From a virus (lineage: Duplodnaviria; Caudoviricetes): DNA of 31,352 nt. The stretch is taken from IMG/VR virus record IMGVR_UViG_3300017761_001785, positions 1-31,352 of that record. One strand, written 5' to 3'. A program made the translations under genes and the position numbers. Below the pieces are notes generated by a model that had not been told where the DNA came from, did not search any database, and saw only the letters and a program-made list of their open reading frames with translations. Below, in pieces: positions 3,079 through 21,531 of the stretch (positions within the stretch are counted from its first letter, which is position 1; every line of letters starts with the position of its first letter).

Positions 3079-4295
3079 GGTAGTCCGAGGCCCGTGCCGA
3101 GGGTTGTTTTGTAGAGATCGTAAAGCTCTAAATTTTGAGATGCGTTTAGACTTGTCGAAATAACGTGTGCAAACGAAATTGTACCTAACCAAAAGAAAGC
3201 GTTAGTAGCGTAAGTTCCTATCAATAATGGATCAGAATTCATTACTACTGAACTCGTCATGGTTCCGACGGAAAGGCCCGAATTATATCCTGTAACGCTT
3301 GTCCCGCTTTTATTATAAACAGGAAATCTAAGCGAATTGATTGGCAATGAATATGTAATGCCAGTAATTTCATCTGCCATTTCTGATCCAGCCCCACCCT
3401 GCCCAATCCAGACAGGACGAGTTTGCAGCGCAATTTTGGTCCCTCCAGTTGAGGGTCTGCTAAGAGAAACTCCAAAGTTAAAATTTGAATAACCCGATTT
3501 TTCGGCAAATGCGACAGTGATGTAATCATCAGATCCGTCAAAAACCATCCCATCCGCCCCGCGTGTTGGGCCGTTGACCATTGTGCCATTGAACGTTCCC
3601 AGACCGCCCAGCGAAAACACGGTGTCGCCGCTTGCGGCATTCTGCGAAGACCTTAACGGCCAACAGACCATGGAATTCCAGAGACCAAGAGCCTTTACTC
3701 CAAGAACAAAGTCATTGATTGCCACAATGTCTGTGGCACCACTGGTTGCAACAAAGCTGCTTGCATTGGCGTCATAGGTCGAGGCTGATGCCGTGTTGCT
3801 ATAGCCAGTAAAGAACCCACCACTAGATCCCCTGATGCGATACTGGTAGTTGCTGGCAATATTTAGTCCGGTGTTGGTTGCCGTGGTGGCCCCGATTGCC
3901 GTGGTTCCGATAACCTGAAAGGCCGCTCCATCCACAGACCTTTCTACAGAATAGGCAACAGATGCCCCATTGGTAACCCAGTCTAGCTTTATTGAAGATG
4001 AGGTTAGCGGGGTCAGCGTTAAACCGCTGGGGGCAGCGGGGGCACTGCGATTGAATATGATTGCCCCGTAGATGTCGCTCCATGCATAGCTCTTGGGGAG
4101 TTCTATGTATTCTTGTTCTGTGCGGGGTCCTCCGAGTTCTACCGCGATCTTGGCATAGAGGTAACGTTCTGGAAGTGTGCAGAAGTCATCGATGGACCCC
4201 GAACCCGACTGCTCAACAAGCCACTTGGAAAGTAGTTGTCGCCTTGGCAAATCTGCCGAGGACGCAAAAACAGCATCTAATACTGGAAGGGCCAT
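3075..4295 (-). CDS. Virion decoration/adhesin-like protein with an FN3 domain and a LamG/concanavalin-like domain
   Basis: PAAPSGLTLT..SSIKLDW..YSVERS..TGL..YQYRIR is an FN3 pattern; C-terminal FDGSDDYI..PLLIG..GTIS..LNASQ is LamG-like; located downstream of the capsid gene. Confidence 0.75.
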   Translation of the reverse strand: MALPVLDAVFASSADLPRRQLLSKWLVEQSGSGSIDDFCTLPERYLYAKIAVELGGPRTEQEYIELPKSYAWSDIYGAIIFNRSAPAAPSGLTLTPLTSSSIKLDWVTNGASVAYSVERSVDGAAFQVIGTTAIGATTATNTGLNIASNYQYRIRGSSGGFFTGYSNTASASTYDANASSFVATSGATDIVAINDFVLGVKALGLWNSMVCWPLRSSQNAASGDTVFSLGGLGTFNGTMVNGPTRGADGMVFDGSDDYITVAFAEKSGYSNFNFGVSLSRPSTGGTKIALQTRPVWIGQGGAGSEMADEITGITYSLPINSLRFPVYNKSGTSVTGYNSGLSVGTMTSSVVMNSDPLLIGTYATNAFFWLGTISFAHVISTSLNASQNLELYDLYKTTLGTGLGLP

Positions 4296-4316: not shown

Positions 4317-4556
4317 TTAGGCCATGCCCATAATTCGTTCACCCATGCCAGCCATAGGGCCAGCAGCTTCCATCTCCTCGTCTTCCATTTCTGCGACAGC
4401 TTCGTCTTCGGTGTCTTCCATCGGGATCTCGACACCAGCAAGCATGGTGGGGACAAGGGAGGTTCCCTCAACGCGAAAAGTAACCAACTCTTCAAAAGTT
4501 TGGCCGTCTTCAACGTCTTCGGGGAGGGTGTAATTTTCGGGGATTGAGAGCTTCAT
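4317..4556 (-). CDS. Small acidic hypothetical protein
   Basis: 79 aa, E/D/M rich; co-oriented with the structural operon and fills the gap. Confidence 0.7.
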   Translation of the reverse strand: MKLSIPENYTLPEDVEDGQTFEELVTFRVEGTSLVPTMLAGVEIPMEDTEDEAVAEMEDEEMEAAGPMAGMGERIMGMA

Positions 4557-20432: not shown

Positions 20433-20597
20433 AAAAAGATTTAGGAGCGGGGTGGCGCACCAACGACAATTCCCCCGAATCGTTGCTGGTTCCGCATTTG
20501 CATGACGGGTCGCCCCGCTCCCAAAAGAGGTGGTAGGACTCAGGTCGCTGCGTCTAGATATCTCCAGCCGCCCCTCAATGATCCCACCATTAGTCAT
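20433..20597 (-). ncRNA. Structured leader or small RNA (long hairpin plus three-way junction)
   Basis: 8-bp stem 20582-20589/20531-20538; 9-bp stem 20513-20521/20444-20452 enclosing a GCAA-capped hairpin and a 13-position hairpin; begins right after an ECF-type promoter. Confidence 0.55.
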
Positions 20598-20603
20598 GGT
20601 TTA

Positions 20604-20632
20604 ATAGACACCATGGATGCGGGTTTGTTCAA
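20604..20632 (-). promoter_or_regulatory. ECF/sigmaE-type promoter, copy 2
   Basis: TTGAAC-N17-GTCTAT. Confidence 0.75.
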
Positions 20633-20639
20633 TCTTTTT

Positions 20640-21091
20640 TTATGGGTTTATGGCGATTGTGTTACTAGGCGGGGCTGGGGCCAGTCGCCCCGCCGTTATC
20701 AGCGGCTCTATTGGCTTGAACCCCGAAACGCCGCTCCATTGGATTAATAATTCCTATGGGCTAGATCCTGCCGAATGACTACACCTCGCCCCCGCAGGGG
20801 CAAAGGCATAGTCAAATTTGGATTCTCATTCCTCTTGGGTGAGTCCTCCGCTTTATTCCACAGACTGCGATCTAGGCTCCGAAGCCGCTCTTAGACCTTC
20901 AAACAACCGCAATCAACCTCCGAGGGTATTATCCCTCGCGCTTACCAGAGTTCCTCTGGATTCCCATGCCGCAATGTGTTCAGGCGATGGGACGGATGGC
21001 TGGCTGCGAGTGCGGCGGTTTTACCCTTGCATACCTCGTCACAGGTTCTAGTGGCGTATGTCTCGTCCACTTTACGACTGTCCTTCCAGAC
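20640..21091 (-). ncRNA. Large multi-stem non-coding RNA candidate (~450 nt)
   Basis: At least nine helices found by eye; tandem G-U pairs and a C-UGCG-G tetraloop work only on the minus strand; has its own promoter; no credible ORF. Confidence 0.6.
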
Positions 21092-21097
21092 AATCGC

Positions 21098-21126
21098 AGG
21101 CTACGATACGTTCAAAATTAAGTCAA
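21098..21126 (-). promoter_or_regulatory. Sigma70-type promoter for the large RNA
   Basis: TTGACT-N17-TAGCCT; overlapping near-ECF element TTGAAC-N18-GTCTGG. Confidence 0.6.
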
Positions 21127-21207
21127 GAAAAGAAAGAGGGTGCGGCTCCGAAGCGAAGTCTGGAAGACAGCCGCAACAAAATGGAACCGCACCCAGATAC
21201 AAGGATC
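21125..21207 (-). ncRNA. Small RNA candidate (~80 nt) ending in a stem and U-rich tail
   Basis: 12-bp stem GGGTGCGGTTCC/GGAGCCGCACCC (21138-21194) followed by TCTTTCTTTTCTT; its loop is complementary to 21074-21097. Confidence 0.55.
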
Positions 21208-21212
21208 GTCAC

Positions 21213-21241
21213 AGAGTAACGCCAGTGTTGCAGAGTGTCAA
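21213..21241 (-). promoter_or_regulatory. Sigma70-type promoter for the small RNA
   Basis: TTGACA-N17-TACTCT with an AT-rich upstream segment. Confidence 0.7.
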
Positions 21242-21261
21242 CAAGAGAGTAAAATTATTTA

Positions 21262-21531
21262 GTGGATAAAGAATCTTACAGAGCCTACTTGAAAACTCCT
21301 TATTGGAAGGACGTAAGCCGACTAGTCAAGAAACGCTACGGCTGGAGGTGCGGGGTGTGTAATAGCCCCCTAGAACTCCAAGCCCACCACCGCACCTACG
21401 AGCATAAGGGGGACGAGCTAAACCACCTTGATGACCTGATCTGCCTGTGCAAGGTCTGCCACAAACTTTTCCACAGGGAGCAGAAAAAGAAAGCGCGACC
21501 CCCAAGGAGACCGCGCCAAAAGAAGGGTTGA
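21262..21531 (+). CDS. HNH endonuclease
   Basis: Y..YL.TPYW..., RCGVC, AHHRTY, DLICLCKVCH..FH; GTG start. Confidence 0.88.
   Translation: MDKESYRAYLKTPYWKDVSRLVKKRYGWRCGVCNSPLELQAHHRTYEHKGDELNHLDDLICLCKVCHKLFHREQKKKARPPRRPRQKKG

Follow-up and report, generated by a model that had tools for sequence, protein, structure and literature searches.

The analysed stretch, called the window here, is a 31,352-base virus sequence (record completeness 43%) whose tailed-phage genes include those for terminase, DnaB, an HNH protein and dCMP deaminase; near-complete relatives have genomes of 67–73 kb. Between a leftward gene block on one side and a rightward block on the other lies a folded element, running on the minus strand from about 21091 to 20668, with a conserved core of ~350 nt that reaches to about 20745 (20745–21091, with ends placed by conservation). 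The right edge of the cassette that holds it, which proves to be swappable, is the short form of the HNH gene (21262–21531, plus strand), which encodes an 89-aa protein on the strand opposite to the element. A conserved −10-like hexamer (21244–21264, plus strand) stands roughly 12 bases upstream of the HNH start codon and overlaps, on the other strand, the promoter region of a predicted partner RNA described below; the HNH transcript likely has a very short leader. At the left edge are an A-rich tract and the promoter-like site of the next unit, TTGAAC-17-GTCTAT (20604–20641, minus strand), both common to those relatives that carry a replication initiator gene instead of the element.

Several further RNA-like units surround this locus. 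A second unit in the window (20436–20600, minus strand) sits behind its own TTGAAC-type promoter (20632) and has conserved short motifs and a long GC hairpin (folding z = −3.1) with no Rfam match; it is found beside both cassette types, with variable inserts. Although a tRNA scan of the window found none, a tRNA-Met lies ~0.1–0.6 kb from the element in four related loci (L006, L039, L043 and L044). Downstream of the element in L085 (~1940–2010), and similarly in L100, L053, L056 and L027, are units of ~65 nt that resemble the lone tRNA-like domain of tmRNA, with little to separate a tmRNA-like 5′ end from a T-arm and CCA end; ARAGORN made no call in L027, L053 and L056 and gave one weak alpha_tmRNA match in L100. 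The neighbouring tRNA-Met, tmRNA and tmRNA-like units each sit behind a similar promoter.

Relatives of the element were gathered through the neighbouring 229-aa gene (80 of 178 loci kept) and through an invariant core motif. The homologue of this gene in the near-complete genome G003 (L214 14246–15883) is 545 aa long; partial matches of its central insert to profiles of ribonucleotide reductase and terminase suggest that it contains an intein. The full unit was present in 134 redundant loci, which reduce to 48 distinct sequences in 32 clusters at 95%, with 14 partial loci left out of the count. The 48 full-length versions are 44–100% identical to the window, and their carriers are related uncultured phages of ~70 kb. 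Relaxed-pattern searches found no homologue outside this clade among the matches listed for viral contigs (one scan covering 39 of 64 parts) and none in a collection of cellular genomes; the named phages and plasmids searched gave no real match to the element, a terminase search of cellular genomes revealed no prophage, and no integrase was found in these phages. The named DnaB matches beyond the clade include Verrucomicrobia at 36–37% identity, a weak lead to the host.

Rfam at gathering thresholds returned no match in the window or in the loci of 12 relatives, and at relaxed E-values (E ≤ 10) nothing credible fell on the element, which is absent from Rfam 15. The first-pass annotation, made from the letters alone, had likewise recognised no tRNA, tmRNA, RNase P or self-splicing intron, and neither Rfam nor ARAGORN matched the element to tRNA, RNase P, tmRNA or a group I or II intron; that these tools work on such DNA is shown by L061, where they picked up a tmRNA and a group I intron. 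An RNase P-like P4 pairing between the 21070 and 20657 regions was rejected because its 3′ partner is not conserved. The literature searched, mostly open-access, does not describe the element, and three of the six supplementary text files of a screen that lists 10,006 viral RNA candidates (PMC10690425) contain no match; its alignments lay outside that search, and part of the element may be listed among its candidates. Nor does the locus appear to be coding: when the six window ORFs were projected onto 34 homologues, each was intact in only 1–12 of the 34 and no conserved ORF emerged, in agreement with the earlier view that no ORF here is credible.

The element has a conserved and covarying secondary structure. 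A 73-pair model was scored on a plain MAFFT alignment of 26 sequences, the members of the 48 with long insertions being left out; it is paired in 90.6% of cells, compared with 36–42% for slid controls. Two-sided changes occur at 31 of the 73 pairs (142 cells), a level matched by 0 of 500 shuffles, and because the model was drawn from these same related sequences this is strong covariation yet no formal probability. Most of the stems also emerged independently from RNAalifold, with two-sided changes in 26 of 48 pairs. The most conserved domain (21004–21070, minus strand) consists of stems 21070–67/21054–51 and 21044–39/21009–04, with two-sided changes in 4/4 and 5/6 pairs, respectively, together with an invariant inner core (21036–21013). 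A predicted pseudoknot, 21060–57/21033–30, is 97% paired and shows no covariation. The middle domain (20863–20997, minus strand) contains hairpins 20991–87/20967–63, 20959–54/20950–45 and 20938–33/20926–21, the second of which accepts insertions of ~65–110 nt in some homologues, together with helix 20914–05/20872–63, paired at 95.2% and with two-sided changes in 6 of 10 pairs. A second predicted pseudoknot, 20996–93/20881–78, has pairs that are invariant in 26/26 sequences; since the pairs of both pseudoknots do not vary (97–100% paired), the two stand as predictions that covariation does not support.

The 3′ domain (20776–20846, minus strand) contains hairpin 20843–40/20828–25 and a long stem, 20814–04/20786–76, capped by GCCCC/GGGGC (20801–797/20792–88); this cap stem is present in 35/35 sequences and never varies. 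As had been noted, only the minus strand can form all 11 bp of the long stem, two of them being G-U pairs. The UGCG loop once read as a UNCG tetraloop varies in length and sequence, with only GC invariant, and is thus no family trait. The variable 3′ tail (20668–20744, minus strand), read by eye, has optional GC-rich hairpins 20734–30/20706–02 and 20694–87/20675–68 and no U tract, and in some homologues it is swapped for, or lengthened by, AT-rich tracts; it would be the candidate origin region. All seven helices listed in the first-pass annotation are indeed complementary, and five hold in the family, whereas the two long-range ones fail and are likely wrong. Helix 20761–67/20869–75 is paired at 71.8% in the 26 sequences and overlaps the better 20914–05/20872–63. 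Helix 20701–08/20882–89 is not family-wide but depends on the optional 3′ module: its 3′ arm is missing in several homologues (for example L034, L037, L044, L049, L054, L055, L056 and L210) and, where present, has a local partner at 20734–30 (by eye, uncounted). That annotation had overlooked the most conserved domain at 21070–21004, both of the predicted pseudoknots and the partner hairpin upstream.

Several lines of evidence suggest that the structure is made as RNA, probably from the minus strand. The folding z-score of region 20630–21100 is −5.7 on the minus strand vs −2.5 on the plus strand; folded singly, four divergent members score weakly (z = −0.6 to −1.3), and the better score in L026 belongs to the opposite strand. 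Read on the minus strand, the paired cells include 160 G-U and 50 A-C, and in a duplex test four stems favour that strand in 24–26 of 26 sequences, while two prefer the opposite one (in 17/26 and 20/26). Two RNA-labelled runs, selected with the element as query, each yielded one contig on its 3′ half (215 and 151 nt), which give no ends, strand or level and lend transcription very slight support. Upstream are two overlapping promoter-like sites (21089–21126, minus strand), TTGACT-17-TAGCCT (21126–21098) and TTGAAC-18-GTC (21115–21089), both identified as consensus matches only; the transcript would begin at 21091 if the sigma-70-like promoter is used or at ~21080 if the TTGAAC-type promoter is. 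The latter pattern recurs at 20632, 18983, 23938 and 25577. The earlier claim that the element has its own promoter thus stands in that such sites are conserved in alignments, although a generic sigma-70 scan called none. Taken together, the stretch is a conserved folded element of ~350–420 bases, absent from the RNA family library and likely made as RNA; this real, uncatalogued large structured element is in our view very likely an RNA. The proposal of a new class of phage non-coding RNA is therefore well supported by covariation, indel-tolerant stems, conserved promoters and the lack of an Rfam match or conserved ORF.

Immediately upstream, a partner RNA of ~78 nt is predicted (21128–21206, minus strand), with a terminator-like hairpin (arms 21194–83/21149–38, 12 bp, folding z = −4.9) followed by a U-rich tract and, read by eye, a promoter-like site TTGACA-17-TACTCT (21213–21241, minus strand); similar sites precede the hairpin in most homologues that have it. 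The loop (21182–21150) is complementary to 21097–21073, that is, to the first ~20–25 nt of the element. Among 30 distinct combinations of loop and 5′ end, the own partner is best in 18 and within the top three in 26, with a mean advantage of 13 kcal/mol over foreign partners; comparison across the family shows that the upstream loop and the element's 5′ end co-vary in this predicted complementarity. The hairpin is present in 40 of the 48 versions, 39 of them identified by pattern and one (L054) by eye, and absent in seven, including L104, which is 91% identical to the window, and in L190 the hairpin does not match; the partner RNA is therefore an add-on. A large hairpin of comparable kind was also seen in the initiator gene's leader in three of the four initiator cassettes inspected (L003 ~4110–4240, L024 ~4060–4190 and L041 ~4380–4510). 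Its loop matches a segment at a distance of ~50 nt, an arrangement like that of an attenuator or of antisense control and a hint that both cassettes may be under RNA control.

What occupies this position in the phages that lack the element bears most directly on its function. Relatives without it can be aligned with the window up to ~21265 on one side and from ~20641 on the other, and between these edges they carry a gene for a winged-helix protein of 167–180 aa that matches PHROG replication-initiation families (E ~1e-14). The 3′ end of this gene contains short spaced repeats, which suggests that the initiator cassette likely carries its own origin; in L042 (2984–3837) a single cassette contains two tandem initiator-like ORFs of 175 and 114 aa. 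Both flanking genes are visible in 35 loci, where the slot is filled 25 times by the element and 10 times by the initiator, with no case of both or of neither; in the first 80 loci the counts are 33, 13 and 0 for element, initiator and both. In initiator-type loci the HNH protein is longer by a C-terminal extension of ~85 aa, present in 10/10 of them vs 0/16 element-type loci (L003 2974–3510 and L024 2933–3463, vs 21262–21531 in the window); this is possibly a partner domain of the initiator.

The exclusion extends beyond the slot. Of 23 whole records, hand-picked from loci of known local state that include near-copies, 11 have only the element, 4 only the initiator, 8 neither and 0 both; for the nine that are at least 90% complete the numbers are 3 element-only, 2 initiator-only and 4 neither. 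The last four are the 187-kb G022 and G014, G015 and G018, which form a distant group; these three were rejected as clade genomes lacking both cassettes, since they share 10–12 of 44 ORFs, are ~30% identical in head genes and have no DnaB or primase match. The near-complete element genomes number only three (G001, 96% complete; G002, 91%; G003, 100%), and none of them matches the initiator alignment, phrog_4707 or HTH_36, whereas the initiator genomes G012 and G013 match all three; the two independent profiles phrog_4707 and HTH_36 thus agree on the cassette state of the five clade genomes. These phages are otherwise closely similar: of the ORFs of at least 150 aa, 39 of 44 are common to G003 and G012, many at 82–97%. 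We found no substitute protein common to the element genomes. The sole ORF present in all three and absent from both initiator genomes encodes 76 aa in the tail region, and the 81 of 102 G003 ORFs that were scanned gave no match to an initiator or a DNA polymerase; G003 does have DnaB, primase and SSB, as well as an exonuclease and a RusA-like resolvase. Mapped onto a DnaB tree of 30 rows, the type of cassette switches 8 times, at least 4 of these switches forced by starred branches and no fewer than with shuffled labels, and this scatter indicates that the two cassettes have been exchanged repeatedly. Because the element occupies the exact slot of the initiator gene of its sister phages, it likely permits DNA copying without that protein. 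As read from these genomes, the argument for a role in starting replication is unusually clean, and we judge such a role, in any form (primer RNA, RNA initiator or single-stranded DNA origin), to be quite probable.

Compositional signals do not map an origin here. The G skew of the element is only mild (−0.01 to 0.11). A cumulative T−A extreme coincides with the slot in the window and in G001, G002, G003 and G013 and lies ~3 kb from it in G012. Skew was nevertheless rejected as an origin map, since the genes also change orientation at the slot and four-fold-degenerate sites show no switch; third-position skew does not switch at the slot either. The polarity flip of a 10-mer, previously offered as a pointer to an origin, is real, but the motif follows the coding strand in 65 of 81 in-gene copies (five genomes), with a slight position effect (non-coding strand in 9/24 copies in counter-oriented genes vs 7/57 elsewhere). 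It thus mostly tracks the coding strand and maps no origin; the earlier suggestion of a replication-primer or origin RNA is weak on this argument and instead gains its weight from the finding that the element and the initiator gene exclude one another in this slot. The motif AA[C/T]CCCGAA occurs 23 times in the window, mostly on coding strands and in several frames; it is common in G001, G003, G012 and G013 and nearly absent from G002. An origin built on DnaA boxes was rejected because no cluster lies at the slot in six genomes.

In DnaB-type replicons something must open the DNA for the helicase, and in the initiator-type phages this is likely the winged-helix protein. We propose that in the element-type phages an RNA-based origin, the simplest stand-in for that protein, does so, working like ColE1 RNA II/RNA I without belonging to that family, a proposal for and against which we regard the case as evenly balanced. 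Minus-strand transcription from the promoter-like sites would produce a transcript that folds, including the two predicted pseudoknots, and may stay hybridised to its template near the 3′ end. The resulting R-loop would open the DNA and allow the phage DnaB helicase and primase to load. The hybrid could then be trimmed to a primer, presumably by host RNase H and Pol I, or could merely displace a strand for helicase loading; the origin itself would lie in the variable 3′ tail. The upstream RNA of ~78 nt would bind the 5′ end, shift folding and damp initiation as ColE1 RNA I does. Several findings count against the primer model, namely the mild G skew, the absence of a skew switch at the slot and the detection of only two short RNA contigs. 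In addition, with no integrase and no sign of a plasmid state, a copy-number brake would have no obvious use. Against a ColE1-like reading in particular, the partner hairpin is missing or non-matching in some members and is same-strand rather than antisense.

In the available text on ColE1 a folded transcript forms a persistent hybrid and a small RNA pairs with its 5′ end (PMC5043065), and in ColE1 and the MRB plasmids alike Rep is replaced by a large RNA plus a small pairing RNA (PMC3035462, PMC5043065). Like ColE1 as described there (PMC5043065, PMC6380287), the element likely comprises a large structured non-coding transcript with no initiator protein, none being detected in the three near-complete genomes, and with a predicted small RNA complementary to its 5′ end, in 40 of the 48 versions. 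The ColE1 small RNA is on the opposite strand and fully complementary, whereas that of the element is upstream, on the same strand and partly complementary, and is missing in some members. The element further departs from ColE1 in residing in a tailed phage that itself encodes DnaB and primase, in trading places with an initiator gene and in its two predicted pseudoknots. No sequence similarity to RNA I/RNA II was detected among 72,556 plasmid records, and Rfam gave no match. The MRB replicons of Vibrionaceae, according to the sections available (PMC3035462), replace Rep by an ORF-free region of ~500 bp, as the element does, and have a small RNA of ~70 nt whose pairing sequence varies among family members, much like the partner RNA; their RNA I is fully complementary on the opposite strand and plasmid-borne, whereas the element has a same-strand layout in a phage, and no plasmid match was better than E = 2. 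The plasmid motifs ARRPOF, GEBRO and PAGEV are also structured, span 220–350 nt and are tied to replication regions, and an ARRPOF plasmid replicates without its rep gene (PMC5737381, in the parts available). ARRPOF coexists with rep in plasmids, whereas the element replaces an initiator in a phage, and none of the three motifs matched it in Rfam at gathering or at E ≤ 10.

The main alternative is that the element is an accessory ornate RNA with a role like that of GOLLD or ROOL, possibly self-assembling, in a swappable slot of an island of non-coding RNAs, with the initiator dispensable and replication proceeding by recombination or from a site opened by transcription. This we consider unlikely, though still worth weighing. 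The tRNA-Met, tmRNA and tmRNA-like neighbours, with their similar promoters, fit an RNA island; GOLLD and ROOL, too, are large, multi-junction, pseudoknotted phage RNAs near tRNAs (PMC5737381, 10.1101/2024.12.08.627333, as far as their available text goes), as the element is with its multi-junction fold, predicted pseudoknots and, in four loci, adjacent tRNA-Met. The exonuclease and RusA-like resolvase of G003 are in keeping with copying by recombination, and a conserved viral Rep is non-essential in SIRV2 (10.1101/2021.11.18.469202, in its available part). An accessory RNA nevertheless predicts phages with both cassettes or neither, of which there are 0 in 35 loci, and the remaining small RNAs of the island are found next to both types of cassette. 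The element is shorter than ROOL (average 581 nt; PMC5737381, 10.1101/2024.12.08.627333, same parts), neither the GOLLD (RF02032) nor the ROOL (RF03087) model scores on it at E ≤ 10 (one ROOL search lacking a positive control), and the available parts of the same two sources contain no report of GOLLD or ROOL replacing an initiator. A different division of labour, which appears improbable to us, would make the RNA itself the initiator: its invariant pseudoknot core would bind the phage DnaB or a host loader and bring it to the locus, and no primer would be cut from the RNA. The exclusion data suit this equally, the invariant unpaired residues and non-varying core at 21036–21013 near the 5′ end may mark a binding or catalytic site, and a phage with its own primase needs no primer; set against this, the literature searched offers no bacterial precedent and the DnaB sequences do not sort by cassette type.

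Exclusion with the initiator would also be expected if the structure acted as single-stranded DNA, as a folded origin or a primosome-assembly site exposed by transcription, and the available part of PMC5737381 allows that plasmid replication motifs may act in that form. The two stems favouring the opposite strand (17/26 and 20/26) would agree, but the excess of G-U over A-C (160 vs 50), the four minus-favouring stems (24–26/26), the dedicated promoter-like sites and the separate promoter and U tract of the partner hairpin make this reading distinctly improbable. A ribozyme, or a regulatory leader or antisense RNA unrelated to replication that, for example, processes the downstream small RNAs or controls the divergent operons, would account for the compact invariant core with its predicted pseudoknots and for the position between divergent gene blocks; we rate it very improbable, as no Rfam ribozyme or intron matched, the downstream unit has its own promoter and occurs without the element, and the loss of the initiator is left unexplained. 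Finally, in the window and in 16 of the first 80 loci an HNH gene borders the element, as would suit a HEARO/OMEGA-like guide or scaffold RNA for that protein. This notion is already largely refuted and has next to no chance of being right: no HNH homologue was detected in seven site-spanning element loci (L002, L005–L007, L044, L053 and L056), HNH also stands beside all 10 spanning initiator cassettes, and the protein is only 89 aa and encoded on the opposite strand.

We retain the RNA-based origin as the best reading. In its boldest form, which we think rather unlikely, a pseudoknotted phage RNA does the job of an initiator protein outright, opening the locus and recruiting DnaB; a partner RNA from the same strand would adjust its activity, and near-identical phages would freely exchange it, as a cassette, with the protein initiator. 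As of 2010, initiator-less replicons started by RNA were known for two plasmid families (PMC3035462, in its available sections). If the proposal is true, the element would be a further, unrelated RNA-started replicon, found in a tailed phage and with a different control layout. Near-identical phages that carry either the RNA or the protein cassette amount to a natural swap experiment, and a large ornate phage RNA would gain a concrete, testable function of the kind still missing for GOLLD and ROOL. Even if the replication idea fails, these phages carry a well-supported family of large RNAs that is new to Rfam 15.
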